Source: an uncultured delta proteobacterium (GTDB lineage: Bacteria > Desulfobacterota > Binatia > DP-6). Taken from it: 64,000 nt of DNA. The stretch is from contig CAWFFN010000008.1 in assembly GCA_963815115.1 (NCBI GenBank), positions 576,001 through 640,000 of the forward strand, given 5' to 3'. A program made the position numbers and the translations under genes. The notes below the pieces were generated by a model, which worked only from the letters and a program-made list of their open reading frames with translations, searched no databases and was not told the DNA's origin. This document shows, in pieces, positions 1,557 through 57,486 of the stretch; position 1 is the stretch's first letter, and the number at the start of each line of letters is the position of its first letter.

Positions 1557-1557
1557 C

Positions 1558-4889: not shown

Positions 4890-4893
<4 letters not shown>
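3934..4893 (+). CDS. coxB: Cytochrome c oxidase subunit II with fused cytochrome c (caa3 type)
   Basis: DVIHSF and [12 protein letters not shown] CuA ligands; C-terminal CPSCH heme c motif. Confidence 0.95.
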
Positions 4894-6546
<1,653 letters not shown>

Positions 6547-6554
<8 letters not shown>

Positions 6555-7209: not shown

Positions 7210-7216
7210 GGATCGC

Positions 7217-7507
7217 ATGTCCGAGGAGCACGTCGTCCCCGTCCGCATCTACGTGATCATCTTCGTCACGCTCGTCGTCCTCACCGGCGTCACCACCGCC
7301 GTGGCCTTCGTCGACCTCGGGCCCATGAACGTCGTCGCGATGCTCCTCATCGCCTTCCTCAAGGCAACGCTCGTCGTCCTCTATTTCATGCACGTGCGCT
7401 TCACGGGGAGGCTCACCCAGATCGCCGCGGCCAGCGGCTTCGCGTGGCTGGTGATCCTGATCGGGCTCACCCTGAGCGACGTCCTGACGCGGAAAGTCGT
7501 CCCCTGA
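7217..7507 (+). CDS. coxD: Cytochrome c oxidase subunit IV (caa3 CtaF-like)
   Basis: Three TM segments, KATLVVLYFMHV motif, last gene of the cox operon. Confidence 0.9.
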   Translation: MSEEHVVPVRIYVIIFVTLVVLTGVTTAVAFVDLGPMNVVAMLLIAFLKATLVVLYFMHVRFTGRLTQIAAASGFAWLVILIGLTLSDVLTRKVVP

Positions 7508-26503: not shown

Positions 26504-27373
26504 ATGCGTCGCGCATGCCTCGCGCTCTGCGTGGCCGCGATCTGCGCGGCCTGCTCCGGGAAGAAGCCCCTCGTGCCCGCCGATCAGCTGTGGGCACAGG
26601 GCAACGAGGCCATGCAGGACGAGGCGTACGACGTCGCCGTCCAGAACTACAAGCGGCTCCTCGACAGCTATCCCTTCGATCCCAACACCGAGGAAGCGGA
26701 GCTCAAGATCGCGGAGGCGTACTTCAACGCCCAGCGCTACCCGGAGGCCATCGCCTCGTTCGGCGACTTCGAGCGCATGCACCCGACGAGCGACAACCTG
26801 CCCCAGATCGAGTACCGCCGCGGCATGGCGTACCTCGCCCAGCACCGCTCGAGCGATCGCGACCAGCAGGCGATCAAGAACGCGCTCGAGTCGTTCCGCA
26901 ACATCGTCGAGCGCTACCCCGGCACACCGTGGGCGGCGCGCGCCGGGCTGCGGGTCCGCGAGTGTCGCGAGGATCTGGCCGAGCACGACGCCGACATCGC
27001 GGCGTTCTACCTGCACCGCGGCAGCCTGCGCGCCGCCGAGTCTCGCCTGCGCGGGATGCTGACGGACTACCCGGATACCGAGGCCACGGCCCGCGCCCTC
27101 GACACGTTCGCCAAGCTGTACGCCTCGCGCGACGAGCCGGAGGAGGCCAACCTCGCCCTCGCCACGCTCGCGCGCTATCACCCCGAGAGCCCGCTCGGCG
27201 TCGACGCCCGCCAGCAGCTCGGCGCGCTCGACCCGGCGCAGGGCCAGGACCCCCTGCCCGTGCTCGTCGCGCGGATCGACGAGATGCGTACGCAGGCGGA
27301 CCGCGAGAGGGTCCCGAAGACCGTGTCGGCGTACTCCGATCGCCCTGGCATGCCGGGCGGCGCCCGCTACTGA
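26504..27373 (+). CDS. bamD: Outer membrane protein assembly lipoprotein BamD
   Basis: Lipobox AAC; TPRs with YPF, FERMHP, DRDQ, YP-T-W and LAEHD..IA.FY pattern. Confidence 0.9.
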   Translation: MRRACLALCVAAICAACSGKKPLVPADQLWAQGNEAMQDEAYDVAVQNYKRLLDSYPFDPNTEEAELKIAEAYFNAQRYPEAIASFGDFERMHPTSDNLPQIEYRRGMAYLAQHRSSDRDQQAIKNALESFRNIVERYPGTPWAARAGLRVRECREDLAEHDADIAAFYLHRGSLRAAESRLRGMLTDYPDTEATARALDTFAKLYASRDEPEEANLALATLARYHPESPLGVDARQQLGALDPAQGQDPLPVLVARIDEMRTQADRERVPKTVSAYSDRPGMPGGARY

Positions 27374-27437: not shown

Positions 27438-27461
27438 CCTGCGTAGAGAAGAGACGACAAA

Positions 27462-27580
27462 CCCCATCCAGAGTGGCGGAGGGTCCGGCCCAGCGAAGCC
27501 ACAGCAACCGGCCCGTGCGGGGCGCGGTGCTAATTCCGACGCGAGGTTTGGCTGGTGAGAGCCGCCCGCGAAAGATGAGG
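27462..27580 (+). ncRNA. SAM-I (S-box) riboswitch aptamer
   Basis: CATCCAGAG..GGAGGG..GGCCC..GAAGCC.CAGCAACC..GGTGCTAATTCC..GAAAGATGAG consensus with pairable P1-P3; upstream of sulfur-metabolism genes. Confidence 0.92.
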
Positions 27581-27637
27581 ATCGCACGCTGGTGAGAGCC
27601 CTCCCCCTACCGTCGGTGGGGGAAGAGATCACCGAGC

Positions 27638-28384
27638 ATGCGCCCCAGCCGATCGACACGCCCTGACCTCGAGGATGCTCGCGTTCTGGTCGTCGGCGTC
27701 GGAGGACTGGGATCGCCGGCCGCGATGGCGCTCGCCGAGGCGGGCGTGGGTACCGTCGGCCTGGTCGACCCGGATCGGGTGGAGCCGTCGAATCTCCACC
27801 GCCAGCCGCTCTACACCGATGCCGACGTCGGGCTGCCCAAGGTGGACGCGGCCGCCGCCCGGCTCCGCGCCGGTCATCCGCGCCTCCGGGTCGAGACCGC
27901 GGCCGTGCGCTTCGGTGCCGGCTCGAGCTCCCTGCTCGCTGGCTTCGACGTCGTCCTCGACGGCACCGATTCCATCGGCGCCAAGTTCGACGTCAACGAC
28001 GCGGCGATTGCCGCGCGCGTTCCGCTCGTCCACGCCGGCGCCATCGGCTGGCAGGCGCAGCTGCTCACCGTCCTGCCGGGCCGCAGCGCCTGCTATCGCT
28101 GTCTCTTCGAGGAGCCCCCGCCAGCGGACGAGGTGCCGTCGTGTCAGGAGGCCGGCGTCCTCGGTCCCGCCGTGGTGTTCGCCGGCAGCGTGCAGGCCGC
28201 GGAGGCGATCCGCCTGCTCACGGGGGCGGCGCCGGCGTTCGCGGACCGGCTGCTCGCCATCGATACCCGCACCGGAAGCTGGCGGCGCATCGCGGTGACC
28301 CGCCGTCTCGACTGCCCCGCCTGTGGGACCGTGCATCAGGAGACCATCGCGCCCAGGAGCGCGCAAAGGAGTGTAGCGAGATGA
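27638..28384 (+). CDS. MoeB/ThiF E1-like adenylyltransferase (catalytic motifs intact, N-terminal RxxRQ helix absent)
   Basis: GVGGLG, SNLHRQ, PKV, DGTDS, CYRC, SCQEAGVLGP, CPAC. Confidence 0.92.
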   Translation: MRPSRSTRPDLEDARVLVVGVGGLGSPAAMALAEAGVGTVGLVDPDRVEPSNLHRQPLYTDADVGLPKVDAAAARLRAGHPRLRVETAAVRFGAGSSSLLAGFDVVLDGTDSIGAKFDVNDAAIAARVPLVHAGAIGWQAQLLTVLPGRSACYRCLFEEPPPADEVPSCQEAGVLGPAVVFAGSVQAAEAIRLLTGAAPAFADRLLAIDTRTGSWRRIAVTRRLDCPACGTVHQETIAPRSAQRSVAR

Positions 28385-29634
28385 GCCACGCAAAAGGGCT
28401 CAGATGCCGCGAGTGCGGCGCCGAAACCCCCATCGCCCCCCTGCACGTCTGCGAGACCTGCTTCGGCCCGCTCGAGGTGCAGTACGACTACGACGCGATC
28501 CGGCGCGTGCTCACGCGCGAAGCCATCGAGCGCCGGCCGCGCAACCTGTGGCGCTATCGCGAGCTGCTCCCGATCGAGGGCGAGCCGCAGATCGGGCTGC
28601 ACTCGGGCTTCACCCCGCTCGTCCGGGCCGAGCGCCTCGCCGCCGTGCTGGGCGTGAAGGAGCTCTGGGTCAAGGACGACTCGGTCAACCACCCCACCTT
28701 CTCGTACAAGGACCGGGTGGTCTCGGTCGCCATCTCGAAGGCCATCGAGTTCGGCTTCGACACGGTGTCCTGCGCCTCCACCGGCAATCTCGCCAACTCC
28801 GTCTCCGCGCACGCCGCGCGTGCGGGACTCAACTGCTTCATCTTCATCCCGGACGACCTCGAGCAGGGCAAGGTGATCGGCTCGACCATCTACGGCCCCC
28901 GCGCCATCGCGATCCGGGGCAACTACGACGACGTCAATCGGCTGTGCAGCGAGATCGCCGACAAGTACGGCTGGGCCTTCGTCAACATCAACGTGCGCCC
29001 GTACTACACGGAGGGCGCGAAGACCTACGGCTTCGAGGTCGCCGAGCAGCTCGGCTGGCGCCTGCCGCAGCACATCGTCGTGCCGGTCGCCGGGGGAACG
29101 ATCCTGCCCAAGGTGGCGAAGGCGTTCCGCGAGCTCCGCGACCTGGGCCTGGTCGACGGCGATTTCAAGATCTACGGCGCGCAGGCGGCGGGGTGCGCTC
29201 CGGTCGTCCAGGCGCTCCACAAGCACACCGACCTGATCAGTCCCGTCAAGCCGGCGACCATCGCCAAGTCGATCGCCATCGGCAACCCGGCCGACGGCTA
29301 CTACGTGCTGAAGGCGGTGCGCGAATCGGGAGGCTGGGGCGAGTCGGTCACCGACGCGGAGATCGTCGAGGCCATCCAGCTCCTGGCGCGGACCGAGGGC
29401 ATCTTCACGGAGCCGGCGGGCGGCACCACCGTGGCCGTCACCCGCAAGCTCATCGCGCAGGGCCGCATCCCGCGCGACGAGTCGATCGTGATCTGCGTGA
29501 CCGGCAACGGCTACAAGACGCTCGAGGCCGTGATCGACAGCGTCGAGCAGCCCTCGCGCATCCCGGCGCGGCTCGCCGATTTCGACGCCCTCTACGCCCA
29601 GCTCCGCGGCGGGCTCGAGGCGTCCGCGGGCTAG
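28381..29634 (+). CDS. thrC: Threonine synthase-like PLP enzyme (candidate MetM-type carrier-dependent homocysteine synthase)
   Basis: N-terminal CxxC..CxxC, PTFSYKDR (PLP Lys), ASTGN, EGAKT, TGNGYK; next to a MoaD-like carrier under a SAM riboswitch. Confidence 0.85.
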   Translation: MSHAKGLRCRECGAETPIAPLHVCETCFGPLEVQYDYDAIRRVLTREAIERRPRNLWRYRELLPIEGEPQIGLHSGFTPLVRAERLAAVLGVKELWVKDDSVNHPTFSYKDRVVSVAISKAIEFGFDTVSCASTGNLANSVSAHAARAGLNCFIFIPDDLEQGKVIGSTIYGPRAIAIRGNYDDVNRLCSEIADKYGWAFVNINVRPYYTEGAKTYGFEVAEQLGWRLPQHIVVPVAGGTILPKVAKAFRELRDLGLVDGDFKIYGAQAAGCAPVVQALHKHTDLISPVKPATIAKSIAIGNPADGYYVLKAVRESGGWGESVTDAEIVEAIQLLARTEGIFTEPAGGTTVAVTRKLIAQGRIPRDESIVICVTGNGYKTLEAVIDSVEQPSRIPARLADFDALYAQLRGGLEASAG

Positions 29635-29687: not shown

Positions 29688-29963
29688 ATGACCCAGGTGA
29701 GAGTGCCCACGCCCCTGCGCAAGTTCACGGGCGGCTCCGAGGCCGTCGAGGCAGACGGCACGAACGTGACCTCGGTCCTTGCCGATCTCGATCGGCGCTA
29801 TCCCGGCATCCGGGAACGCATCTGCGACGAATCCGGCCAGGTGCGCCGCTTCGTCAACATCTTCGTCAACGGTGAGGACATCCGCTTCCTCCAGCACCTC
29901 GAGACCCCGGTGAAGGCAGGCGACGAGCTGTCGATCGTCCCGGCCATCGCGGGAGGCCGCTAG
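29688..29963 (+). CDS. Ubiquitin-like sulfur carrier protein (MoaD/CysO family) ending IAGG-R
   Basis: AGGAGG RBS; VRVPTPLR, RRFVNIFVNGEDIRFL and SIVPAIAGGR. Confidence 0.93.
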   Translation: MTQVRVPTPLRKFTGGSEAVEADGTNVTSVLADLDRRYPGIRERICDESGQVRRFVNIFVNGEDIRFLQHLETPVKAGDELSIVPAIAGGR

Positions 29964-29975
29964 AGCGGAGCGTGC

Positions 29976-30959
29976 ATGGCGTCGCGCGTCGCCCAGGCGG
30001 GTTGCTCCGCCGGTCCGACGGCGCCGGGGGAGGGACCGCTCGTCTCGCCCTCGGTGCTCGAGCTGATCGGCAACACGCCGCTGGTGGAGATCCAGCGGGT
30101 GCGCGAAGGAGTCCCGCCCGGCGTCCGCCTGTTCGGCAAGATCGAGGGCTTCAACCCTGGCGGCTCGGTGAAGGACCGGCCCGCGCTCAGGATGATCCAG
30201 GAAGGCATCCGCCAGGGCAGGCTCGTGCCGGGCAAGACCATCCTCGACTCGACGTCGGGCAACACCGGCATCGCGCTCGCCATGATCGGCGCCGCGCTCG
30301 GCTACCCGGTCGAGCTGGTGATGCCGGCCAACGTGAGCCGCGAGCGCAAGCAGATGGTGGCGGCGTTCGGCGCCCGGGTCGTGTTCAGCGATCCGCTCGA
30401 GGGCAGCGACGGCGCCATCCGCCTCTGCCGCGAGGTGCTCGCGGCCGATCCCGAGCGCTACTTCAAGCCCGACCAGTACAACAACGAAGCCAACCCGCTC
30501 GCCCACTACGAGACCACGGGACCGGAGATCTGGCGCCAGACCGACGGCCGGGTGACGCACTTCGTGGCCGGCATCGGCACGGGCGGCACGATCATGGGCA
30601 CGGGTCGCTTCCTGAAGGAGCAGAATCCGGCCGTCCAGGTGATCGCGGCGGAGCCGGAGGACGCGTTTCACGGCCTCGAGGGGCTCAAGCACATGGAGAC
30701 CTCGATCGTGCCGGGCATCTACCACGAAGCCGAGCTCGACCTGAAGCTCGGCGTCGGCACCGACGAGGCATACGACATGGTGTACCGCCTCGGGCGCGAG
30801 GAGGCGCTGCTCGTCGGCCAGTCGTGCGGCGCCGCCCACGTCGCCGCGTTGCGGGTGGCGCGCACGCTCGACGAGGGCACGATCGTCGTGCTCTTCGCCG
30901 ACTTCGGGGACCGCTACCTCTCGACCAACCTCTGGCTCGGCTGGCAGCGCCAGGGATGA
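29976..30959 (+). CDS. cysM: Cysteine synthase family PLP enzyme (CysM-like)
   Basis: IGNTPLV, NPGGSVKDR, TSGNTG, GIGTGGT, DRYLST. Confidence 0.9.
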   Translation: MASRVAQAGCSAGPTAPGEGPLVSPSVLELIGNTPLVEIQRVREGVPPGVRLFGKIEGFNPGGSVKDRPALRMIQEGIRQGRLVPGKTILDSTSGNTGIALAMIGAALGYPVELVMPANVSRERKQMVAAFGARVVFSDPLEGSDGAIRLCREVLAADPERYFKPDQYNNEANPLAHYETTGPEIWRQTDGRVTHFVAGIGTGGTIMGTGRFLKEQNPAVQVIAAEPEDAFHGLEGLKHMETSIVPGIYHEAELDLKLGVGTDEAYDMVYRLGREEALLVGQSCGAAHVAALRVARTLDEGTIVVLFADFGDRYLSTNLWLGWQRQG

Positions 30960-31240
30960 GCCGCGGCGGCAGCACATCGTCGCGCCGCAAGGCGGGCACC
31001 AAGGCGCGGGTGAAGCTCTACCTCACCTACCCGAGCCGTCTGGTGCGCGAGCCCCTCATCTACCACCTGAGCCGCAACTTCGACCTGATCTTCAACATCC
31101 GGCAGGCGAGCGTGAACGAGGACATCGGCATCATCGCCATCGAGCTCGACGGCGCCGACGAGGCGATCGAGCGCGGCATCGCATGGCTCCGCGAGCGCGG
31201 CGTCACCGTCGAGCCGATCGAGAAGAACGTCATCGAGTGA
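30956..31240 (+). CDS. Stand-alone NIL domain protein
   Basis: EPLIYHLSRNFDLIFNIRQASV..G..IEL.G..IERGIAWL...GV.VEPIE, the NIL/MetN-C2 pattern. Confidence 0.88.
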   Translation: MSRGGSTSSRRKAGTKARVKLYLTYPSRLVREPLIYHLSRNFDLIFNIRQASVNEDIGIIAIELDGADEAIERGIAWLRERGVTVEPIEKNVIE

Positions 31241-31800
31241 TGCTGAGCGACGCGGACATCGAGCGCTGGAGCCGCCAGATCATCCTCCCGGAGGTCGGCG
31301 GCCGAGGGCAGCGCAGGCTGATGACGGCACGCGTGTCGGTCGTGGGCGACGGGCCGGTCGCCGCCTGCGCGACCGATCTGCTCGCGCGCGCGGGGGTCAC
31401 CGCCGAGCGCTCCTCCGGGCAGCTCGACGACGCCGAGCTCGTGGTCGATCTCGGCCCGGGGAAGAGCGCCGGCACCGCCCTCGCCCGGCGCGCGCTCGAG
31501 CGCGGCGTGCCGCTGGTTCGCGGCCGATGCTGGAGCGCCGGCGGTACGGTGGACACGCTGGTCGGCCGGCCCTGCGGCCTCTGCCTGTCCGGGGCGGCGC
31601 TCCCGTCCGGCCCGACCGGCGAGGCCCTGGCGGCGCCGGCGGCACAGGCGGTGGCCGCGCTCGTCGCGACCGAGGTCCTGCGCGTGCTCCTGATCGGAGC
31701 GCCTGTCGGCCGGCGACAGCTGGTCGATCTCGACGGCGGCCGCTTCTCGTGCGAGGCGCTCGACTCGGCCGGCTGTGCCAGCTGCGGAGCGCGGGCGTGA
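31240..31800 (+). CDS. Degenerate ThiF/MoeB-like protein (inactive adenylation domain)
   Basis: ERWSRQIILPEVGGRGQRRL N-terminus and two CxxC motifs retained; nucleotide-binding Gly loop degenerate (GDGPVA); SNLxRQ segment and the conserved Cys absent. Confidence 0.8.
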   Translation: MLSDADIERWSRQIILPEVGGRGQRRLMTARVSVVGDGPVAACATDLLARAGVTAERSSGQLDDAELVVDLGPGKSAGTALARRALERGVPLVRGRCWSAGGTVDTLVGRPCGLCLSGAALPSGPTGEALAAPAAQAVAALVATEVLRVLLIGAPVGRRQLVDLDGGRFSCEALDSAGCASCGARA

Positions 31801-33002
31801 CCGGCGGCGAGCGGCTCGAGGCGAAGCTCGACATCGCGGCCCGTGGTGTGCGCATCGACGAAAGCGCGCGTGGGCTCGCCCCGGAATCGGAGCCGCTGCC
31901 GCAGGCCCTCGAGCTCGTCATCGACGACGAGGCGCACGTCAGCGCGCCGGTCGACGCGGCCGGCACGGCGCCCGCCGCCCTGCTGCTGATCGGAGACGCG
32001 GGCCGCTACTACCTGGTCGATCGGGAGGCGAACGGCGGTGCGCGGCTCGAGGTGGGTGTGCCGACGTTGCCGCGCTTCTACGGCCGCCGCACCGCCTCGG
32101 GCATGCCGATGCGGCGGGTCGCGAGCGTCGTCGGGAGCCACCTGCTCGTCCATCCCTCCGGGGCGTGCGGCTTCAGCGTGCAGGGCTCGCCGTGCCGCTT
32201 CTGTCTCGAAGGCGCACGGGCCGAGCGTGGCGCGGTGGCGACGGTCGCGGACGTGGTCGAGGTCACCCGCGTCGCCTTCGAGGAAGGCGTCGCCGAGTCC
32301 GTGTATCTGAACAGCGACGCCTTCGAGGCCGAAGACGGCGGCCTCGCCTTCGTGGCGCCGTACGTCGAGGGCATCCGGAGGCATTTCGACACGCTGGTGG
32401 CCGTGCAGGTACATCCCCCGCGCTCCGACCGCTGGATCGACTGGGCCTACGCGCTCGGCGTCGACGCCCTCAGCTTCAACCTCGAGATCTACGACCCCGA
32501 GCTGCTCGACCGCTGCTGCATCGGGCGCATGCGCTACATCGGCCGCCAGCGCTACCTCGATGCCCTGGCTCACGCGGCGCGCATCTTCCCCAGCGGCACG
32601 GTGTGGAGCGATCTGGTGCTCGGCCTCGAACCCCCCGGGTCGACCATGGAAGGCATCGACGCACTCGCCGCGCTCGGCGTCGTGCCCGTGGTGACGGCAC
32701 GCCGGGCCCTGTCGACGCCCGGGGAGCGTCTGGAAGGGCCCGTCGTGGGGCACGTGCTCGCCCATCTCTACGGTGCGGTGCACGACCGCGGCATCAACAT
32801 GGGCTGGATCCGCGACCTGGTCGGCGGCGTCGCGCCGCTCGAGGCGCGCGCGCACGGCGGCAAGGGCGCCGGACTCGCCACCGCCATGGAGAACATCACG
32901 CGCTCGCGGCTGGGGGCGCTCGCCGCCCGCGGGCTCGCCCGCTTCCGCCGCCGGCTCCGCGTGAAGAGCATCGGCGACTCGTTCGACGCCGCACACCTCT
33001 GA
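31797..33002 (+). CDS. Radical SAM protein with CX8CX2C motif (distant MSMEG_0568-like/BioB-like)
   Basis: PRFYGRRT.SG.P, CGFSVQGSPCRFC, SFNLEIYD, SDLVLGLE. Confidence 0.8.
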   Translation: MTGGERLEAKLDIAARGVRIDESARGLAPESEPLPQALELVIDDEAHVSAPVDAAGTAPAALLLIGDAGRYYLVDREANGGARLEVGVPTLPRFYGRRTASGMPMRRVASVVGSHLLVHPSGACGFSVQGSPCRFCLEGARAERGAVATVADVVEVTRVAFEEGVAESVYLNSDAFEAEDGGLAFVAPYVEGIRRHFDTLVAVQVHPPRSDRWIDWAYALGVDALSFNLEIYDPELLDRCCIGRMRYIGRQRYLDALAHAARIFPSGTVWSDLVLGLEPPGSTMEGIDALAALGVVPVVTARRALSTPGERLEGPVVGHVLAHLYGAVHDRGINMGWIRDLVGGVAPLEARAHGGKGAGLATAMENITRSRLGALAARGLARFRRRLRVKSIGDSFDAAHL

Positions 33003-33006
33003 GCCC

Positions 33007-34485
33007 GTGGGGGAGCCAGCTACCCGCCGCGTCCCCGGGGACGTCCTCGTCGACACGCGCCCGTTGTGGCGCATTCTCGCCGGACGCACCTTCCGCCCGC
33101 TGGTGCTGCTCACCGGCGCGGCGCTGTTCCTGCTGATCCGCGCCCTGCCGCCTTTGCCGGGACTCGAGCCGGGCGGGCAACGCGCGCTCGCCGTCTTCGT
33201 CATCTGCCTCGTCTACTGGGTGACGAACGTTCTGCCGCTCATGGTGACGAGCCTCCTCGCCATGGTGCTGCTGCCGCTCACCGGCGTGCTCCAGACGAAG
33301 GACACCTACGCGCTGTTCGGCAACGAGGCGGTATTCTTCATCCTGGGCGCGTTCCTGCTCGCCGCCTCCCTCATGCGCTGCGGGCTCTCCACCCGCATCG
33401 CGGTCGCCATCCTGCGTCGCTTCGGCCACACCCCGCGGACGCTCCTCCTGTCCTTCTTCCTCATGAACGCCTTCCTCGCCTTCTTCATGTCCGAGCACGC
33501 GGTCGCGGCCATGACCTTCCCGATCACGCTCGAGATCGCGTCCGTCCTCGGCTTGCAGCGCCAGCGCAGCAGCTACGGCCGTGCCCTCTTCATCTCGATG
33601 GCGTGGGGAACGCAGATCGGCGGCATCGCCACGCTGCTGGGCGGCGGACGGGCGCCGCTCGCCATCGGCATGCTGCGCGAGTCCACGGGGCAGGGCTACA
33701 CCTTTCTCCAGTGGACGCTGGCGGCGTGGCCGATCGTCGCGGTGCTGCTGGTCGCCGGCTGGTTCATCATCACGTGGTTCTTTCCCATCGACATCGAGTC
33801 GGTGAGACGGGCGGACGCGGTGATCGAGGAGAAGGCGCTCAAGATGGGCCGCCCGTCGGTGCGCGAGCGCTCCATCGGGCTGATCATGCTCGTCACGCTC
33901 ACTGCCTGGATCGTGGGTGGCGAGGAGTTCGGGCTGGCGACCATCGCGCTGGGCGCGGTCGTGGTCATCTTCGTCGCCGGGCTGCTCGAGTGGCGCGACC
34001 TCGAGCAGTACGTGAACTGGGGCGTGCTCCTCATGTACGGCGGCGCCATCGCGCTGGGCTCGGCGCTGCACAAGTCGGGTGCCTCGGTGTGGATCGCCTC
34101 CCTCACCGTGAGCCACTGGGCGCGGACGCCCGCGCAGGTCGTGGCCATCCTCTCGGGCATCGGCATCGTGCTCACGGAGGCCATGAGCCACTCGGCCGTG
34201 GTCGCTCTCCTGATGCCCGTCGCGCTCGGCATCGCGCAGCAGTACGGCATGGACCCGCGGCTGATGGCGCCCGTGATCGCCCTCCCCTCCGGGCTCGCCT
34301 TCACGCTCCCCGTCGGCACGCCGGGGAACGCCATCGCCTACTCCTCGGGCTACCTCCGGCTGCGCGACATGCTGCTGCCGGGCTCCCTGATGGTCGTCAT
34401 TGCCTGGGCCGTGTTCAACCTGGTGGTGCGCTACTACTGGCCCCTGATCGGGCTCTCGCTCGCCCCGGTGGCTGCAGCAGGTTGA
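33007..34485 (+). CDS. DASS/SLC13 anion permease (likely sulfate/thiosulfate uptake)
   Basis: Many TMs; [44 protein letters not shown]; upstream of sat. Confidence 0.88.
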
Positions 34486-34550: not shown

Positions 34551-35807
34551 ATGCCCGATCTGATTCCTCCGCACGGCGGCCTCACCGAGCCCGTGAACTG
34601 CATGGTATCCGCAGCCGACGAGGCAGCGCTCGTCGCCGAGGCGGCGAAGCTGGTGCAGGTGCCCGTCTCCGACGCCGATCTCTCCAGCGTCTATCGCTTC
34701 GGCGATGGCGGCCTCTCGCCCCTCACCGGCCCGATGGACGAGGCCGCATACCACCGCGTCCTCGACGAGGCGGTCATCGAGCACCAGGGTCGGAAGTACG
34801 CCTGGACCATTCCGATCGCGTTTCCCGTCACGCGCGAGCTCGCGGGCCGCATCCGCCGCGGCGATTCGGTGGCGCTGGTGAACGGCGACACCGTCGTCGC
34901 CACGCTCGCGGTCGGCGACGTCTTCGCGTGGGACAAGCAGCGCTACATCCGGAGCGTCTACCAGACGGAGCGCACCGACCACCCCGGCGGCGACATGGTG
35001 CTCAAGGGCGACGCCGACAAGACGCACCTGCTCGGCGGCACGCTGCGGGTGCGCCCGCAGCCGAAGCACCCGAAGTTCGGCGCCTACGTCCGCTCGCCGC
35101 GCGAGGTGCGGGCCCTGCTGCGCGACAAGGGCTGGCAGCGCGTGGTCGCGTTCCAGACCCGCAACCCGTTGCACCGCGCCCACGAGTACGCCCTCGTCTA
35201 CGGCCTCGAGACGCTGCTGCGCCAGGGACACGACGCGGGCGCCTGCCTGAATCCGCTGATCGGCGAGACCAAGGGCGACGACGTCCACGCCGAGGTCCGC
35301 ATGGCCACCTACGAGGCGCTGATCCGCACGCGTGCCCTGGGCGACGGCGACAGCGACCAGGCGCTGTGGGGTCCGCGCGGGGAGTCCGTGCCCGATCGCG
35401 TGATCCTGCTCGGGCTCGACATCAAGATGTTCTACGGCGGTCCGAACGAGGCGGTGATGCACGCCATCTACCGGCAGAACTTCGGCTTCACGGACCTGAT
35501 CGTGGGGCGCAAGCACGCCGACGCCCCCTTTCACGACGGCAGCGCCATCTGGGGCGACTTCGACGCCCAGGAGCGGTTCTCGACGCTGCGAGGCGACCTC
35601 GAGATCCGCCCGCTGAAGGTCGGCTTCGCCGCCTACTACGAGTCCATCGGCCGCGTCGACCTGACCGACAATCATCCCGACGAGAAGCCGGTGTCGATCT
35701 CCGGCAAGGACGTCCGCAAGGCGCTGCTCGAGGGCCGCGAGGTCGACCCGCGCATCATGCGCCCGTCCACCTCGCACATCCTGGCGGCCGCGATGCGGGA
35801 GGCGTGA
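34551..35807 (+). CDS. sat: Sulfate adenylyltransferase (Sat type)
   Basis: [38 protein letters not shown]. Confidence 0.93.
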
Positions 35808-35832: not shown

Positions 35833-36045
35833 ATGAAGGTCGACGTGTCGTGTCGCCAGTGCGGCGCCACGACCCGGCTCGACCTCGGCAGCCCGGCTCC
35901 GGGCGAGTCCGTCGAGGACTATCTCCACCTGGTCCGCGAGCGCCTCGCCCACCGGCCGAGCTTCACCTGCTTCGGCGGCCATACCGAGCTGCGGCCGCCC
36001 GTGCCCGGCTTCTGGGAGGTGCGCTGGGAGACGCTCGGGGAATAG
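35833..36045 (+). CDS. Small CxxC-containing hypothetical protein
   Basis: 70 aa ORF with CRQC and CFGGH; closes the operon before a strong hairpin. Confidence 0.6.
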   Translation: MKVDVSCRQCGATTRLDLGSPAPGESVEDYLHLVRERLAHRPSFTCFGGHTELRPPVPGFWEVRWETLGE

Positions 36046-51309: not shown

Positions 51310-52725
51310 TCAGGGACCCGGAGCGAGGCCGCGGCGCCGCGGCTGCGCGCGCTCACGCTCGCGCGCGCGCACGAGGGGCTGCAGCTCCTCGAGCGCGGCG
51401 TCGACCTCCTCGCGTTGCGGGCTGCCCTCGGCGAGCAGCGGCTTGGCGCGATCGAAGAGGCTGTAGGCCTGCTCCAGGTCGCCGCGCAGCCTCGCGGCCA
51501 CCGCGAGCTGGTAGAACCCCTGCCCCTGATCGCCCTGCCGCCCGAGCGCCATCCCGAGCAGGCGGTGGGCCTCGTCGAGATTGCCGTCGAGGCGCGCGGC
51601 GCGCTGGTACTCGCCCAGCGCCTGGTCGGCCTTGCCCTCGTCCGCGAACGCCTTGCCCAGCTGCAGGTGCGCCCAGGCGTCGCTCGGATGCGCCGCCAGG
51701 TAGCGCTGCAGGATCGCCGCGCCCTGCTCGGGCTGCTTGAGCGCCACGTAGACGGCGCCCAGCGGGCGGTCGACCTGGTTACCGAATCCGAGGTCGCGGG
51801 CCCGCTCGAGCGCGGTCTTCGCGGCGTCGGGCTTGCCGATGGTCTGGTATACCCGGCCGAGCAGGAACTGGCGCTCGGCGTCGTCGGGCTTCTCCTCGGC
51901 GAGCTTGCGGTACTCTGCGACCACCACCTCGGGCGGCCCGTCGAGCGCGTTCGCCACCGCTCTCGCTTCCTGGAACGCGGGAGTCGCCCTGGGATGGCCG
52001 GCCGGCGTCTTCAGCCCGCGCGCCTTGATGATGCTCTCGGTGTGCGCCACCCGCTCCTCGGTGACCGGGTGCGACAGCATGTAGGCGGGCACGCCGGCGG
52101 GATTCACCCGCTGCTCGACCAGGAGCTGCTTGAAGAACGCGGGGAGCGCGTTGGGATCGTATCCCGCCTGCGAGGTCGTCGTGAGGCCGAGGTAGTCCGC
52201 TTCCTGCTCGAAGTCGCGCGAGTACTTGAGCTGCGCGGTCTGGGCCGCGGCGAGCGCGCCGGCGGCGAGCACCGGATTGATGGCGGCGAGGAACACGCCG
52301 AGCAGCGACGCGACGTTCCACGCCATCCCCTGCGTCTGCATGCGGACGACGTGGTGCGCGTGCGCGTGGCCGATCTCGTGGCCGAGGACGCCGGCGAGCT
52401 CGTCGTCGGTGCCGGCCCGCGCGAGCAGGCCGGTGAACACGAAGACGTACCCTCCCGGCACCGCGAAGGCGTTCAGGATGGGGCTCTCGACGACGTAGAA
52501 GTGATAGTCGAACGGCTGCGGGCCGAGCGCGCCGACCAGCCGGTTCCCCAGCGACTGCACGTACTCGTTGACGGCGGGATCTTCGGCCAGCGGCAGCTGC
52601 GAGCGCGCCTCGAGGAGGAAGTGCGCACCCATCTCGCGCTCGCCGCCCTCGCCGGTGGCGAGCACCCCCTCCGCGGCGAGCAGGACCGCGAGGAACGACG
52701 CCAGGAGCGGGCGGCGGCGTCTCAT
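51310..52725 (-). CDS. bepA: M48 metalloprotease with TPRs (BepA/YfgC-like)
   Basis: NAFAVPGG, HEIGH, YSRDFEQEAD, LSHP, C-terminal TPRs. Confidence 0.88.
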   Translation of the reverse strand: MRRRRPLLASFLAVLLAAEGVLATGEGGEREMGAHFLLEARSQLPLAEDPAVNEYVQSLGNRLVGALGPQPFDYHFYVVESPILNAFAVPGGYVFVFTGLLARAGTDDELAGVLGHEIGHAHAHHVVRMQTQGMAWNVASLLGVFLAAINPVLAAGALAAAQTAQLKYSRDFEQEADYLGLTTTSQAGYDPNALPAFFKQLLVEQRVNPAGVPAYMLSHPVTEERVAHTESIIKARGLKTPAGHPRATPAFQEARAVANALDGPPEVVVAEYRKLAEEKPDDAERQFLLGRVYQTIGKPDAAKTALERARDLGFGNQVDRPLGAVYVALKQPEQGAAILQRYLAAHPSDAWAHLQLGKAFADEGKADQALGEYQRAARLDGNLDEAHRLLGMALGRQGDQGQGFYQLAVAARLRGDLEQAYSLFDRAKPLLAEGSPQREEVDAALEELQPLVRARERERAQPRRRGLAPGP

Positions 52726-53696
52726 GGGCGCCGCCGCGCGACGTCACGCGCGAAGTACGTGATCACGATGTCCGCGCCGGCGCGCCGGATCGCGAGCAGG
52801 CTCTCGTCGACCACGCGCTCCTCGTCGATCCAACCGCGCGCGGCGGCCGCCTTGATCATCGAGTACTCTCCGCTGACGTGGTAGGCGGCGACGGGATGGC
52901 CGAAGCGCTCCTTCACCCGCCACACCAGGTCGAGGTAGGGAAGCGCGGGCTTGACCATCACGATGTCGGCCCCCTCCTCGATGTCGAGGGCCACCTCGCG
53001 CAGCGCCTCCTCCGCGTTGGCCGGGTCCATCTGGTAGCCGCGGCGATCGCCGAACTGCGGCGTCGACTCCGCCGCCTCGCGGAACGGCCCGTAGAGGGCC
53101 GACGCGAACTTGGCGGCGTACGACATGATCGGCACCTGCGTGAAGCTCGCCTCGTCGAGCACCCGCCGGACGGCACCGACCCGGCCATCCATCATGTCCG
53201 AGGGCGCGATCACGTCCGCGCCCGCCCTGGCATGAGCGAGCGCCTCCGCGGCCAGCACCGGAAGAGTCGCGTCGTTGTCGACCTCGCCATCGCGGATGAT
53301 GCCGCAGTGCCCGTGGTCGGTGTACTCGCACAGGCACACGTCGGTGATCAGCAGCAGCCCGGGCGCGGCGGCCCGGATGGCCTCGAGCGCGCGGGGGATG
53401 ATGCCCGAGGGATCGACTGCGCCGCTGCCGCGCGCGTCCTTGCGCTCGGGAATCCCGAAGAGCAGGACGGCGGGAACGCCGAGGTCGGCGAGCCGGCGGC
53501 CCTCCTCGGCGGCGCGGTCGGCAGAGAGCTGCGAGATGCCTGGCATGGCGTCGATGGGCTGCTCGACGCTTCTCCCCGGGACGACGAAGAGCGGCTGCAC
53601 GAGCTGCTCCAGGGTCACCCGCGTCTCGCGCACCAGGCGGCGGAGGGCGTCGCTGCGCCGCAGCCGCCGCGGACGGTAGGCGGGGTAGCGGCTCAT
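52722..53696 (-). CDS. hemB: Porphobilinogen synthase (Zn type)
   Basis: RPRRLR, DVCLCEYTDHGHCG, PSDMMDG, MVKPA. Confidence 0.97.
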   Translation of the reverse strand: MSRYPAYRPRRLRRSDALRRLVRETRVTLEQLVQPLFVVPGRSVEQPIDAMPGISQLSADRAAEEGRRLADLGVPAVLLFGIPERKDARGSGAVDPSGIIPRALEAIRAAAPGLLLITDVCLCEYTDHGHCGIIRDGEVDNDATLPVLAAEALAHARAGADVIAPSDMMDGRVGAVRRVLDEASFTQVPIMSYAAKFASALYGPFREAAESTPQFGDRRGYQMDPANAEEALREVALDIEEGADIVMVKPALPYLDLVWRVKERFGHPVAAYHVSGEYSMIKAAAARGWIDEERVVDESLLAIRRAGADIVITYFARDVARRRP

Positions 53697-55270
53697 CGCA
53701 CGCCTCCGCTTAGTCGATCCCCCGCTCGATTGCAAAAATGATCGATGAGGGCAGCCGCCAGACCCTGCGCCGTGTAGTCCTCGGGGCACACGTGCACGGT
53801 GAGGCCGGCTTCTCGCGCCGTCTCCGCCGTGACGGGGCCGATGCAGGCAACGACCGGGCCCGGGGAGCGTCCGAGCCGGGCAGTCTCCTCCCGCCCGAGC
53901 AGCTCGGCGAAGTTCCGCACCGTCGAGCTGCTGGTGAAGGTGAGGGCGTCGATCGCACCCGCGGCGAGTGCCGCGCGGAGGCCCTCGACGTCGGCGTCGG
54001 GCGGCCGCACCGCCTGGTACGCGATGACCTCGTCGACGTGCGCGCCGCGCGCGGCGAGGGTCTCGGGGAGCACGCGACGTGCGCCGGCGGCCCGCGGCAG
54101 CAGGATGCGCCTCCCGCGCACGTCCTCGCGATCGAGGGCCTCGAGCAACCCCTCGGCCCGGTACTCCCGCGGCACGACCGCGGGCCGCAGCAGGCGGCGC
54201 TCCAGCTCCGCCGCCGTCTCCGGGCCGATGACGCCGATTCGCACCCCGGCCAGCTCCCGGACGTCTCCACCCCGCGCGGCGAAGCGCGCGAAGAAGGCGC
54301 GGACGCCGTTGGCGCTGGTGAAGAGCAGCCAGTCGTAGCCGGCGGCGGTCGCCGCCGCGTGCTCGAGCGCGGCGGGGTCCGGCGGCGGAGCGATGGCGAT
54401 GGTCGGGAAGAGGATCACCTCGGCCCCCGCGTCTTCCAGGACGCGCGCCAGCTCCCCGGCCTGCTCGCGCGGACGCGTCACCACGACGCGGCGGCCGAGC
54501 AGCGGGCGATCCTCGAACCAGCGCACGTGCTCGCGCAGGGAAACGACGCCGCCGATGACGAGCACGGCGGGGGCCGGAACGCCGGCAGCTTGCACGCGCT
54601 CGGCGAGCGTCGCGGCGGTGCCTTCGACCGTGCGCTGGCTTCCCAGCGTCCCGCGGTGCACGAGCGCGGCCGGTGTCGCCGGGTCGAGGCCCGCACCGAT
54701 CAGTGCGGCCAGCACCTTCGCCAGCTGCCGCACCGCCATCAGGAACACCAGCGTGCCGCCCTGGCGGGCCAGGGCCGCCCAGGGCAGGTCGGGAGGACCC
54801 GGCTCGGCCGCTCCTGGCGGGCAGGCCTGGTGGCCGGTGGCGATGGTGACGAGCGAGGCGTGGTCGCGATGGGTGACCGGGATGCCGGCGTAGGCGAGCG
54901 CGGCGATGGCGGAGGTGACGCCGGGAACCACCTCGAAGGCGATGCCGGCAGCGCGCAGCGCCTGCGCCTCCTCGGCGCCGCGCCCGAAGACGAACGGATC
55001 GCCGTTCTTGAGCCGGACGACGAGCCGCCCGACACGCGCGCGGTCGATCAGCAGCTTCTCGATCTCGGCCTGCGAGAGGCGATCGCCCTCCCCGTGGGGA
55101 CGGCCCACGGCCACCACCTCGGCATCGGGACGCACCGACTCGAGGAGCCGGCGGTGCACGAGGTCGTCGTGCACCACGACGTCGGCGGCCGCGAGCCAGC
55201 GCTGCCCGCGCACCGTGAGCAGCCCGGGATCGCCGGGGCCGGCGCCGACGAGCACGACGCGCCCGCTCAT
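53693..55270 (-). CDS. cobA: Uroporphyrinogen-III C-methyltransferase / uroporphyrinogen-III synthase fusion (CobA-HemD)
   Basis: LVGAGPGDP, RLKNGDPFVFGRG, then VVTRP, FTSANGV, FTSSSTV, CIGPVTA. Confidence 0.95.
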   Translation of the reverse strand: MSGRVVLVGAGPGDPGLLTVRGQRWLAAADVVVHDDLVHRRLLESVRPDAEVVAVGRPHGEGDRLSQAEIEKLLIDRARVGRLVVRLKNGDPFVFGRGAEEAQALRAAGIAFEVVPGVTSAIAALAYAGIPVTHRDHASLVTIATGHQACPPGAAEPGPPDLPWAALARQGGTLVFLMAVRQLAKVLAALIGAGLDPATPAALVHRGTLGSQRTVEGTAATLAERVQAAGVPAPAVLVIGGVVSLREHVRWFEDRPLLGRRVVVTRPREQAGELARVLEDAGAEVILFPTIAIAPPPDPAALEHAAATAAGYDWLLFTSANGVRAFFARFAARGGDVRELAGVRIGVIGPETAAELERRLLRPAVVPREYRAEGLLEALDREDVRGRRILLPRAAGARRVLPETLAARGAHVDEVIAYQAVRPPDADVEGLRAALAAGAIDALTFTSSSTVRNFAELLGREETARLGRSPGPVVACIGPVTAETAREAGLTVHVCPEDYTAQGLAAALIDHFCNRAGDRLSGGVR

Positions 55271-56184
55271 CGCCCGAGCACCCGGCCCGCACCGCGGCCG
55301 AGCAGGCGCTGCGCGAGGTCGCACCCGAGCGCCTCGGCGTCGGCGCGCGGCGCCTCTCCCTCGCCGTCGAACCACTCCCGTCCCTCGAGATCGCTGACCT
55401 GCGCGCGCAGTGCGACCCGGCCGTCGTCGATCCGCGCGTGGGCGGCCATCGGGGTATTGCAGTCCCCACCGATGGCGATCAGGAACGCGCGCTCGGCGGC
55501 CACCGCGACCGTGGAGTCCGGATCGGCGAAGGCAGCGAGCAGCGCGCGCGTTGCCGTGTCGTCGACGCGGCACTCGATGGCGAGCGCCCCCTGCCCCACC
55601 GCGGGAAGCAGCTCGTCGGTCTCCAGCGGCGTGGCCGCGGGCTCGCTGACGCCGAGTCGCACCAGGCCCGCCGAGGCGAGGACGAGCGCGTCCACCTCCC
55701 CGGCCCGCCACTTCGCGAGGCGTGTGTCGACGTTGCCGCGCAGGAACACCACGCCGAGATCGCGGCGACGGGCGAGGAGCTGGGCGCGCCGGCGCACGCT
55801 GGCCGTCCCGATGCGCGCGCCGGGCGGAAGCCCCGCGAGCCCGCCGCCTCCGCCCCCCACGAGGACGTCGCGCGCGTCGGCGCGGGCGGGGATCGCGCCG
55901 ATCGCGAGTCCCGGCGCGAGCGCCGCCGGAACGTCCTTCATGGAATGCACGGCGCAGTCGATCCGCCGGTCGGCCAGCGCCTCCTCCAGCTCCTTCACGA
56001 ACAGGCCCTTGCCGCCGACCGGCGCCAGGGACCCCTGCGACAGGCGGTCACCGCTGGTCCGGATCAGCACCATCTCGACCTCGAGCCCGGGGTGGAGCCG
56101 CTCGAGGGCGACACCGACCTGCCCGCTCTGGGCGCGCGCAAGCGCGCTCGCGCGCGTGCCCACGCGAAGGGTGCGAGCGGGCAC
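55267..56184 (-). CDS. hemC: Hydroxymethylbilane synthase
   Basis: GTRASALA, GKGLFVKE, VHSMKD, RGNVDTRL, GGDCNTP. Confidence 0.97.
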   Translation of the reverse strand: MPARTLRVGTRASALARAQSGQVGVALERLHPGLEVEMVLIRTSGDRLSQGSLAPVGGKGLFVKELEEALADRRIDCAVHSMKDVPAALAPGLAIGAIPARADARDVLVGGGGGGLAGLPPGARIGTASVRRRAQLLARRRDLGVVFLRGNVDTRLAKWRAGEVDALVLASAGLVRLGVSEPAATPLETDELLPAVGQGALAIECRVDDTATRALLAAFADPDSTVAVAAERAFLIAIGGDCNTPMAAHARIDDGRVALRAQVSDLEGREWFDGEGEAPRADAEALGCDLAQRLLGRGAGRVLGR

Positions 56185-56188
56185 GGCG

Positions 56189-57485
56189 TCAGCTCTCCTC
56201 GTCGTCCGGCGGCTCGTCCCTGCCGAGACGGAAGAGGGACCGCGCCGCCTCGATGTAGAACGACTCGCCGCGCACCGCCTGGTGGCGGCGGAGCGCCGTC
56301 ACCGGATGATGCAGGATCTTGTTCACGATGGCGCGGGTCAGGCGCTCGACCGCCTCGCGATGGCGGAGATCGGCCGAGCCCAGGGACGCGAGATGGCGCT
56401 CCACCTCGGCTTGCCGGATGGCTTCCACCTTGTCGCGCAGGGCGACGATCGTGGGCACGACGTCGAGCCCCTGGAGCCAGGTCCAGAAGGACTCGACCTC
56501 GGCCTCCACGATGGCCTCGGCCCGGACCGCCTCGCCGGCACGCGCTCCCCGGTTCTCGGCGACGATCCCGTCGAGGTCGTCGACGTCGAACAGATACACG
56601 CCGTCCAGCGCGTTGACGGCGGGGTCGATCGAGCGCGGCACCGCGAGGTCGATGAGGAGCATCGGGCGGCCCCGGCGCTCGCGCATGGCCTCCTCCATCG
56701 GTCCGGGGCGGACCAGGAGATCGCCACCCGCGGCGCTGATCACGAGGTCGGCGTGCGGCAGCATCCGGGCCGCGCGCTCGAGCGGGACGGCGAGGCCGCC
56801 CAGCTCGCGCGCGACGTCGGCGGCACGCTCGAAGGTACGGTTCGCCACCATGAGCGTTCCGACGCCCCGTGCCAGGAGCGCGCGCGCCGTGAGCTCGCCC
56901 ATCGTCCCCGCACCGAGCAGGAGCACCGTCTTGTCGGCGAAGTGATCGAAGATTTCGCCGGCGAGCTCGACCGCCGCGGAGCCCACCGACACGGCCCTCT
57001 CGGCAATCCCGGTCTCGCTGCGGATGCGCTTGGCCACCGAGAACGACTTGTGGAAGCAGCGATGCAGCACCCGGCCAGAGGCTCCGGCCGCCGCCGCCGC
57101 GGCGTACTGCTCCTTCAGCTGGCCGAGGGATCTGCGGCTCGCCCACCACCATCGAGTCGAGACTCGCCGCGACCCGGAAGAGATGCCGGATCGCCTCGCG
57201 ATCGCGGTGGGTGTAGAGGCTCCCGGCCAGCTCGTCGGCGCCGAGCCGGTGCGCGTCGGCGAGGAAGGCCGGTAGCTCGGCCGCGACCGCGTCCGGATCA
57301 CGCCCGCACGCCACCACCTCGACGCGGTTGCAGGTGGAGACGATCACGGCCTCGTTCACGTTGGGTAGCGCGACGAGGCCGCGCAGTGCGAGGTCGAGGC
57401 GCCCATTGGTGAACGCCACGCGCTCGCGCACCTCCACCGGGGCGGTGTGGTGGCTCAACCCGACGAGGACGATGCGCTGGCTCAC
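56189..57485 (-). pseudogene. hemA: Glutamyl-tRNA reductase with a one-base insertion at about 57127-57129 (probable sequencing error)
   Basis: STCNRVE and SLDSMVVGEPQI in one frame; LGQLK and GAGTMG in another; ATC-C-CTC-GGC has one extra C. Confidence 0.92.
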
Positions 57486-57486
57486 G

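Follow-up and report, generated by a model that had tools for sequence, protein, structure and literature searches.

The stretch of DNA analysed here (the window: 64,000 nt of contig CAWFFN010000008.1 from an uncultured delta proteobacterium, to which all window coordinates refer) encodes at 31797-33002, on the forward strand, a protein with the predicted fold of radical S-adenosylmethionine (SAM) enzymes, referred to below as rSAM. The protein is a dedicated, co-translated component of a sulfur-assimilation operon that is repressed through a SAM riboswitch. The analysis established the reality of the gene, the fold, cluster motif and family placement of its product, the conserved operon, the riboswitch and the existence of gene fusions. 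The gene and its main features are the following:

31797..33002, + strand: variant radical-SAM-fold protein, 401 aa (NCBIfam NF045502, 142.1 bits against a cutoff of 125; AlphaFold2 (AF2) model with pLDDT 89.8 and pTM 0.90)
32166..32204, + strand: CX8CX2C, putative [4Fe-4S]-binding motif formed by C124, C133 and C136 (CGFSVQGSPCRFC), invariant in a 16-sequence alignment and present in 118/118 close homologues
32907..32999, + strand: basic C-terminal helix (residues 371-388, RGLARFRRRLRV, read from the model with DSSP) and acidic/Ser tail SIGDSFDAAHL

The frame is open throughout and shows a coding signal in its third-position GC; raw lists of open reading frames (ORFs) are noisy in this window because its G+C content is about 71%. 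Homologues are 395-403 aa long and cover 98-100% of the query, which fixes the start codon. This start, a GTG, shares bases with the TGA that ends the ThiF-like gene before it, so that bases 31797-31800 read GTGA, in agreement with the coupling to a degenerate E1 proposed in a preliminary description of the region. By our start calls, the same 4-nt overlap occurs in 12 of the 15 related loci L001-L015. The translation carries the stretch LPRFYGRRTASGMPM, includes PRFYGRRTASG, and contains the segment ACGFSVQGSPCRFCLEG, in which C124, C133 and C136 form a CX8CX2C motif with a Phe (F135) preceding the last Cys. This spacing departs from the canonical CX3CX2C, and in wider relatives the first two Cys are separated by 8, 9, 10, 11, 13 or 14 residues. 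Both the unusual motif and the basic C-terminal helix had been picked out in the preliminary description, and both hold up: among 118 close homologues (each at least 330 aa, query included), the former is kept in all and the motif of the latter, a helix at 371-388 in the model, in 117. In the 16-sequence alignment, with identity down to 53%, C124, C133, C136 and C241 are invariant, as are many arginines, while EDGG, SFNLE and LVLGLEP, which resemble the usual SAM-contact motifs, are invariant or almost so. At the C-terminal end of the protein, which reads RGLARFRRRLRVKSIGDSFDAAHL, invariance extends to R382, R384-386, R388 and H400. The terminal segment RFRRRLRVKSIGDSFDAAHL fits a pattern in which an acidic/Ser tail comes after a [RK][RK]x[LIM][RK]V helix.

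rSAM passes the NCBIfam model NF045502 ('variant_rSAM') with E = 2.1e-41, as do most of the relatives scanned. By contrast with this match, the Pfam Radical_SAM profile (PF04055) stays below threshold (23.3 bits vs a gathering score of 29.5, E = 8.1e-5); a precomputed PF04055 label is attached to about half of the close homologues. The likeness to MSMEG_0568-like proteins, first suggested by the PRFYGRRTASG segment, is real but only partial: rSAM fails the MSMEG_0568 model TIGR04043 by a wide margin (72.5 bits against a cutoff of 303.7). A sequence search of the PDB with the rSAM family profile gave no match at E ≤ 1. The AF2 model, built on 63 relatives, has an N-terminal beta-rich domain (residues ~1-112), a six-strand core and C-terminal helices, the last of which is 371-388; the final ~12 residues have low pLDDT. 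Foldseek comparison of the model with the PDB yielded 98 matches at E ≤ 1e-3. Ranks 1-47 are radical SAM enzymes, and dihydropteroate synthase follows at rank 48. The top match is lipoyl synthase of M. tuberculosis (5exi, E = 2.5e-7), followed by human LIAS and then by ThiH, biotin synthase BioB, HydE, PFL-AE, NifB, PylB and MqnE. In hhalign alignments of the protein with single E. coli sequences, those of BioB and of LipA, the stretches that fall in register are the cluster loop, EDGG/RDGG, SFNLE/NHNLE (NHNLD in BioB) and GLE/GLGE, although these alignments are weak (E = 0.02-0.03, probability ~2%). Taken together, the motif and the model predict that the gene product is a genuine [4Fe-4S]-binding, AdoMet-type protein of the radical SAM fold, which may bind and cleave SAM.

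To place rSAM within its family, we collected relatives, of which 1066 representative clusters pass E ≤ 1e-3 and 71 also pass E ≤ 1e-30, and computed a quick IQ-TREE phylogeny of 101 family members. By its sequence, rSAM belongs to an uncharacterised clade of the variant-rSAM (NF045502/COG2516-like) group. This clade, defined by the C-terminal tail, comprises 57 rows of the tree (SH-aLRT support 94). MSMEG_0568-like rows form a separate clade (30 rows, support 99), and a third clade contains 13 rows (support 99). A number of tail-bearing relatives lack the cluster cysteines (P0139, P0141, P0157, P0162, P0166, P0180, P0197, P0208, P0210, P0211, P0213, P0218, P0229, P0248 and P0271) and look, from their sequences, like pseudo-rSAM proteins; some single Cys-less rows are perhaps sequencing artefacts. 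Such rows form at least three well-supported clades (P0208/P0210; P0213/P0218/P0229; P0197/P0211/P0248/P0271), and several of them are also devoid of the NLE/GLE motifs, yet keep the terminal ...LRRxLRVxxxSDSYESAGL. Matches in the ESM Atlas were only to 'hypothetical / radical SAM' clusters, mainly of Acidobacteriota. The plasmid collection contained no rSAM orthologue, only distant genes of the MSMEG_0568 family with 26-31% identity.

The gene is embedded in the following series of elements on the same strand:

27461..27581, + strand: SAM-I (S-box) riboswitch aptamer (Rfam RF00162, 74.3 bits against a gathering score of 44.4, E = 2.6e-16, full model 1-108)
27638..28384, + strand: active ThiF/MoeB-type E1 adenylyltransferase, 248 aa (Pfam ThiF, 230.9 bits)
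28381..29634, + strand: threonine-synthase-like (ThrC-like) pyridoxal phosphate (PLP) enzyme with an N-terminal Cys-rich ribbon (Pfam PALP, 237.8 bits; NF006050, 315.6 vs 303)
29688..29963, + strand: ThiS/MoaD-type sulfur carrier, 91 aa, ending in AIAGG-R (Pfam ThiS, 70 bits; SAMP1 and MoaD_arch above NCBIfam cutoffs)
29976..30959, + strand: PLP-dependent sulfhydrylase of the CysM/CysK family (Pfam PALP, 236.5 bits; TIGR01136 cysKM, 353.6 vs 344; TIGR01138 cysM, 377 vs 394)
30956..31240, + strand: stand-alone NIL-domain protein, 94 aa, with its start overlapping the CysM stop (Pfam NIL, 60.6 bits)
31237..31800, + strand: degenerate E1-like protein (pseudo-E1), 187 aa, matching only positions 2-44 of the ThiF profile
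33007..34485, + strand: sodium:anion (sulfate-type) symporter of the DASS/SLC13 family (Pfam Na_sulph_symp, 212 bits; TIGR00785 dass, 275.6 vs 198.6)
34551..35807 (about), + strand: ATP sulfurylase (sulfate adenylyltransferase, Sat; Pfam ATP-sulfurylase, 195.8 bits, and PUA_2, 105 bits), with the ATG start read from the translation
35833..36045, + strand: small ORF of 70 aa with a CxxC...C..H pattern, after Sat, without a Pfam or NCBIfam match

Pfam and NCBIfam searches thus confirm the neighbours named in the preliminary description, that is, E1, the ThrC-like enzyme, ThiS/MoaD, the CysM-like enzyme, NIL, the truncated ThiF-like protein, rSAM, DASS and ATP sulfurylase. Start codons overlap the preceding stop codons at the CysM/NIL, NIL/pseudo-E1 and pseudo-E1/rSAM boundaries. 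Nothing promoter-like came up in a scan for promoters and terminators, and the single terminator-like site compares with 1.9 expected, which makes the scan uninformative. The 70-aa ORF, which may close the unit, has counterparts with 67-76% identity in L003 (17967-18179), L005 (12535-12747), L007 (12555-12767) and L015 (14549-14761). The SAM-I riboswitch lies directly upstream of E1 not only here but also in all 14 related loci that reach that far (L001-L007, L010-L012, L015-L018), and the unit therefore looks like a SAM-repressed operon for sulfur assimilation into methionine and cysteine. A CCUCCCCC/GGGGGAAG hairpin, located after the aptamer and ahead of the ATG at 27638, may sequester the ribosome-binding site. 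Judged by its gene content, the operon imports sulfate, activates it and uses a ThiS-type protein thiocarboxylate to form cysteine and homocysteine. In the carrier, AIAGG is followed by one further residue in 17/17 sequences (the window and 16 loci; R in 13, A in 2, H in 1 and N in 1), and because of this extra residue it requires C-terminal trimming; no peptidase of the JAMM/Mec type is present among the window genes scanned. Orthologues of the ThrC-like protein are 87-91% identical in L001-L012 and 73-74% identical in L016-L018. Its context and GapMind 2026 make it probably a candidate carrier-dependent homocysteine synthase of the MetM type. In the NIL protein, 31 columns do not vary across 19 orthologues, among them those of the C-terminal EPIEKNVIE, and its nearest relatives of known structure are the C-terminal domains of MetN (3dhx and 3dhw, E = 3e-7).

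The two E1-related genes appear to complement each other. E1 residues 10-227 match positions 17-237 of the Pfam ThiF profile, and the MoeB/ThiF/UbaA-like matches in NCBIfam begin at profile positions 19-29. The N-terminal RxxRQ...GxxGQ helix is missing from the protein, no upstream extension of its ORF is possible, and its orthologues are likewise 241-252 aa long in 14/14 loci; neither Pfam nor NCBIfam detects a rhodanese domain in it. The profile of pseudo-E1 can be aligned over its full length with ThiF and MoeB of E. coli, with a deletion of ~45 residues. What is missing is the central nucleotide-binding and catalytic segment, and what is retained is just the helix absent from E1, with R10, R13, Q14, I15, P18, G21, G24 and Q25 invariant and the zinc-type CxxC...CxxC pairs kept. 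The earlier designation of this protein as an inactive E1 is supported, with the ThiF match limited to positions 2-44 and the catalytic middle deleted. E1 and pseudo-E1 have the appearance of two halves that complete each other in a heterodimeric E1, whose inactive subunit would provide the arginine in trans, an arrangement familiar from the eukaryotic NAE1-UBA3 and SAE1-UBA2 pairs. Pseudo-E1 is thus probably in the first place a partner of E1, and only possibly a partner of rSAM.

Genes for sulfate reduction were not found with this unit. Using E. coli queries in tblastn at E ≤ 0.01, we found no match to CysH, CysI or CysJ in the 64-kb window or in 18 related loci (~310 kb), and rSAM itself has no Pfam or NCBIfam match to any of the three. 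Consequently, in the window and the 18 loci, genes for uptake, activation and incorporation are linked and those for reduction are not. The window encodes, at 52722-58961 on the reverse strand, HemB, a fused uroporphyrinogen methyltransferase-HemD, HemC, HemA, a cytochrome c assembly protein and a protein similar to precorrin-2 dehydrogenase/sirohaem synthase; these sirohaem-type genes suggest that a sirohaem-dependent reductase is present elsewhere in the genome. As for the host, the window carries at 439-7507, on the forward strand, genes for the Alternative Complex III subunit ActD and for COX2, COX1, COX3 and COX4 of an aa3-type cytochrome c oxidase, and the organism is therefore expected to be aerobic or facultatively aerobic. 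Its envelope is Gram-negative, as the BamD/YfiO lipoprotein encoded at 26504-27373 shows.

Conservation of the genome context was assessed in the same 18 loci, all from metagenome-assembled genomes, by scoring gene presence with tblastn and the window proteins as queries. Identity to the query is 52-74% for the rSAM proteins of L001-L015, whose labels are Binatia, 'delta proteobacterium' or Thermodesulfobacteriota, and 37-38% for those of L016-L018, labelled Proteobacteria. NIL and pseudo-E1, in this order, directly precede rSAM in 18/18 loci. CysM is likewise found in 18/18 (cut or broken in L009, L015 and L006), ThiS and the ThrC-like gene in 16/18 each, and E1 in 14/18; wherever ThiS, the ThrC-like gene or E1 is missing, the contig ends before the gene. 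DASS lies directly 3' of rSAM in 12/18 loci, and ATP sulfurylase is within the stretch in 13/18. Five more loci have Sat as the gene next after rSAM, and in L012 DASS is represented by just a distant fragment. Sat proteins of two non-orthologous types fill the same slot: the proteins of L006 (12758-13888), L008 (5355-6485) and L010 (11216-12391) are ~34% identical to that of the window, compared with 78-88% in most others. Of the distant loci, L016 and L018 were scanned further. Both have a HAD-family hydrolase (PpaX/Gph-like) between pseudo-E1 and rSAM (L016, 9088-9888; L018, 9170-9886) and, after DASS, an adenosine phosphosulfate (APS) kinase in place of ATP sulfurylase (L016, 12733-13269; L018, 12664-13278). 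Thus, rather than occurring mostly elsewhere, homologues of rSAM are linked to a sulfur-carrier neighbourhood in 18/18 loci, including the three at 37-38% identity, and the operon is spread over uncultured Binatia, 'delta', Acidobacteriota and Proteobacteria lineages. Mirror-tree comparison of rSAM with each operon protein gave raw correlations of 0.84-0.95, which reflect shared phylogeny; after controlling for CysM, the partial correlation is highest with ThiS (0.70), a value dominated by two groups of loci and unreliable.

Gene fusions connect rSAM with further partners. The link to DASS is the robust one: P0251 (881 aa) joins rSAM to DASS, with the basic helix running into the membrane domain. 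Its 90% cluster has four members of equal length from five contigs, and the same rSAM-DASS architecture is seen in P0267, a partial protein from Zetaproteobacteria. In the AF2 fold of P0251 both domains are confident (pLDDT 86.7), whereas pTM is 0.62, the linker (404-423) has pLDDT <50, and no contact between the domains is resolved. P0145 (575 aa) combines a Prok-JAB (JAMM) domain with rSAM and comes from one 3-kb contig, P0263 joins a methyltransferase to an rSAM from the non-tail part of the family, and P0276 is a pseudo-E1-HAD fusion that reads coherently. P0275 (505 aa, ThiF + Radical_SAM), the top match in the search for longer relatives of pseudo-E1, was considered as a pseudo-E1-rSAM fusion and rejected: its junction and C-terminus look like out-of-frame translation of overlapping genes, and it is probably an assembly or frameshift artefact. 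A dedicated search for longer, fused relatives of rSAM produced none at E ≤ 1e-3, which is weak evidence.

Several known systems resemble rSAM or its operon in part. The MSMEG_0568 family (TIGR04043, Nit1C; within NF045502/COG2516, 'biotin synthase-related'), functionally uncharacterised too, shares with rSAM the N-terminal beta domain, the barrel and the lengthened first Cys spacing. However, it lacks the basic C-terminal tail, many of its members ending instead in a CxxC-type motif, and it occurs next to nitrilase, GNAT and AIR-synthase genes, in contrast to the sulfur-carrier genes around rSAM; the plasmid-borne representatives mentioned above align over ~60-67% of the rSAM query. In Podar et al. 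2005, the MSMEG_0568/COG2516 clade is described as biotin-synthase-related and the Nit1C-type cluster as composed of nitrilase, GNAT, AIR-synthase-like and flavoprotein genes. None of these four domains is found in the operon or in the scanned flanking ORFs.

LipA/LIAS and BioB, the best structural matches (5exi, 5exj, 9c19, 8vcw and 1r30; probability 1.00, TM score 0.52-0.60 on the target), take part in sulfur metabolism, as does the rSAM operon. Their RDGG, NHNLE and VGLGE motifs parallel EDGG, SFNLE and LGLEP of rSAM in the weak hhalign alignments. On the other hand, sequence identity is only 13-20%, the spacing is CX3CX2C rather than CX8CX2C, and rSAM has an extra N-terminal domain and the C-terminal tail. 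LipA and BioB hold an auxiliary Fe-S cluster by Cys ligand sets of their own. No Cys set of this kind is present in rSAM, where only C241 is conserved besides the cluster cysteines (in the wider alignment, 44/63 sequences keep it). Another E1/ThiS operon with a radical SAM enzyme, ThiH, is the ThiF-ThiS-ThiG-ThiH thiazole module. Both this module and the rSAM operon bring together an E1, a carrier of the ThiS type and a radical SAM enzyme, and ThiH is among the top fold matches of rSAM (7pd2, E = 5.5e-6). The rSAM operon differs in the absence of ThiG, in the carrier clients, which are CysM-like and ThrC-like, and in its control by a SAM riboswitch.

Protein-thiocarboxylate pathways to cysteine and homocysteine include CysO-CysM-Mec-MoeZ of M. 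tuberculosis, MetM-MetO-Mec-MoeZ of Streptomyces and HcyS-HcyF-HcyD-MetY of Wolinella. Known pathways of this kind share with the rSAM operon a ThiS-type carrier, an E1 and PLP enzymes of the CysM and ThrC (MetM-like) types. They employ a rhodanese-bearing MoeZ and a JAMM hydrolase and do without radical SAM, NIL and pseudo-E1, whereas the rSAM operon has an E1 without rhodanese, no JAMM, and the trio of NIL, pseudo-E1 and rSAM in every case. The GapMind 2026 passage on the O-phosphohomoserine thiocarboxylate route gives MetO, Mec, MoeZ and MetM as its steps and mentions no radical SAM enzyme. A further parallel is the NIL-ferredoxin protein (MA1822/DvMF_0262), which, according to Price et al. 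2018 (PMC5764234), is genetically required, along with DUF39, for reductive sulfur transfer to homocysteine. It resembles the rSAM operon in pairing NIL with an Fe-S protein for sulfur incorporation in the methionine pathway; in that protein a 2x[4Fe-4S] ferredoxin is joined to NIL, and aspartate semialdehyde is the compound on which it acts together with DUF39, while here NIL is stand-alone, the Fe-S protein has the radical SAM fold and the acceptor is a carrier protein. Judging by titles and the openings of abstracts, we found no description of this protein or operon in the literature, and none of MSMEG_0568 by name.

What does rSAM do in this operon? E1 has no rhodanese domain, the scanned window genes include no JAMM peptidase and three uncharacterised proteins are always present; for these reasons we favour, with a probability of about 35%, a role in which rSAM supplies the E1-carrier complex with reduced sulfur or electrons in an Fe-S/SAM-dependent manner. 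The lack of linked reduction genes and the NIL-ferredoxin precedent speak for this role as well. Of the proposal made in the preliminary description, that rSAM may load the carrier, cleave an organosulfur substrate or provide the missing reductive step, the part supported is the link to sulfur assimilation. In the corresponding scheme, pseudo-E1 would lend its Arg-finger helix to E1, which has neither a helix of its own nor a rhodanese domain, within a heterodimer. NIL and rSAM would dock on the E1/pseudo-E1 complex, and the rSAM cluster, with SAM at its unique iron, would deliver reduced sulfur, reducing equivalents or both, so that the adenylated carrier is converted into ThiS-COSH. The delivery step would stand in for the MoeZ rhodanese of the mycobacterial and Streptomyces pathways and would have its parallel in NIL-ferredoxin, which partners DUF39 in homocysteine synthesis. 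By its basic C-terminal helix and tail, rSAM may be tethered to a partner that is located at the DASS transporter or close to it. Both the partners of rSAM and the transfer of sulfur or electrons are inferred in this scheme. A more ambitious version, in which the NIL/pseudo-E1/rSAM trio is a new sulfur-mobilising machine that draws on activated sulfate, or on an anion brought in by DASS, as its sulfur source and places the sulfur reductively and directly on the ThiS carrier, bypassing free sulfide as well as rhodanese and CysH-type steps, is in our view unlikely.

Several observations weigh against delivery of sulfur or electrons by rSAM. Because it has no auxiliary-cluster motif of the LipA/BioB type and only C241 as an additional conserved Cys, donation of sulfur from a sacrificial cluster would have to proceed without obvious ligands. 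It is plausible that a conventional siroheme sulfite reductase encoded elsewhere supplies free sulfide, which could load the carrier adenylate unaided. A SAM-consuming enzyme is also counter-intuitive in an operon that is induced by SAM shortage. Much of the synteny among L001-L015 is shared ancestry, since these loci are related, and independent support comes mostly from L016-L018 and from the fusions, of which that of JAMM with rSAM rests on a single 3-kb contig. Finally, the cysteine motif is gone in 16 of the 57 rows of the tail-bearing clade. This repeated loss, with the tail kept, implies that the common function of the clade may not require Fe-S/SAM chemistry; it suggests docking through the tail as the common denominator and keeps a sensor or scaffold role alive.

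Such a role would make rSAM a sensor or gating subunit that binds SAM or reports Fe-S or redox status and regulates DASS and/or E1 through its basic helix and tail, with NIL as a methionine sensor alongside. The fusion to DASS by way of the basic helix fits this idea, as does the tail, which is the most persistent feature of the clade, outlasting the cluster cysteines and sometimes NLE/GLE, and which is predicted to be disordered, as is usual for docking peptides. The nearest solved relatives of NIL are, moreover, regulatory: the C-terminal domains of MetN are responsible for trans-inhibition by methionine. Against this, the three cysteines in 118/118 close homologues, along with the many invariant arginines and barrel-loop residues, look like an active site, control by SAM is already exerted at the RNA level, rSAM is kept in 5/18 loci without an adjacent DASS gene, and the model of the fused protein shows no contact between its domains (pTM 0.62, linker pLDDT <50). 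We regard a sensor as possible, if on the whole doubtful. The missing reductase could instead be rSAM itself, with the barrel binding APS or its 3'-phosphorylated form (PAPS), or the cluster binding sulfite or thiosulfate delivered by DASS, in replacement of a CysH-type enzyme. Genes for uptake, activation (Sat or CysC) and incorporation are indeed present while a reductase is found in 0/19 cases, rSAM is fused or adjacent to an anion transporter, its many invariant arginines would suit an anionic substrate, and a HAD phosphatase stands beside it where APS kinase occurs. Yet rSAM has no similarity to CysH or CysI, its SAM-contact-like stretches are of the ordinary kind, the sirohaem biosynthesis genes of the window indicate a sulfite or nitrite reductase of conventional type elsewhere, and we know of no precedent for APS chemistry on a radical SAM fold. 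We hold a new reductase to be decidedly unlikely.

A different substrate, the carrier C-terminus or a partner enzyme, is envisaged if rSAM modifies proteins and acts with a JAMM peptidase in maturation or recycling of the carrier. The six-strand partial barrel recalls that of LipA and PFL-AE, which act on proteins, and the JAB-rSAM fusion, the extra residue after AIAGG in 17/17 carriers with no JAMM in the window genes scanned, and the distance correlation after CysM control, highest with ThiS (0.70) and weak, can all be read in this sense. But trimming one residue or hydrolysing a carrier-Cys adduct requires no radical chemistry, and the fusion, known from a single contig, includes JAMM as well, so that rSAM is no substitute for it; the mirror-tree signal is dominated by two locus groups. 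We consider protein modification very unlikely. Least credible, and highly improbable in our estimate, is that rSAM is a LipA/BioB-like cofactor enzyme unrelated to the pathway, which happens to share the operon in one lineage. LipA and BioB are its best structural matches, and L001-L015 are phylogenetically close, so their synteny was possibly inherited. The linkage nevertheless holds at 37-38% identity in another phylum, the start of rSAM overlaps the preceding stop, fusions with DASS and JAMM exist, the auxiliary-cluster cysteines of LipA/BioB are absent, and the SAM riboswitch covers the whole unit.

Carrier-protein thiocarboxylate routes to cysteine and homocysteine have been described from few organisms, and those need an E1-rhodanese and a JAMM enzyme. 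The operon described here exchanges these two components for a split E1, NIL and a variant rSAM, all under one SAM riboswitch, and the conservation of rSAM in it suggests an undescribed step in the sulfur uptake of some uncultured bacteria. If rSAM supplies sulfur or electrons, this would be a new step of primary sulfur assimilation and a new class of reaction for a large unannotated clade of radical SAM proteins; if the entire trio works as a sulfur-mobilising machine, rSAM would be the first enzyme of the radical SAM fold in primary sulfur assimilation. If it is a sensor, the fold would have been recruited as a regulator of transport. Either way, the operon offers a concrete candidate for pathway-gap tools such as GapMind and a compact nine-gene system for biochemistry.

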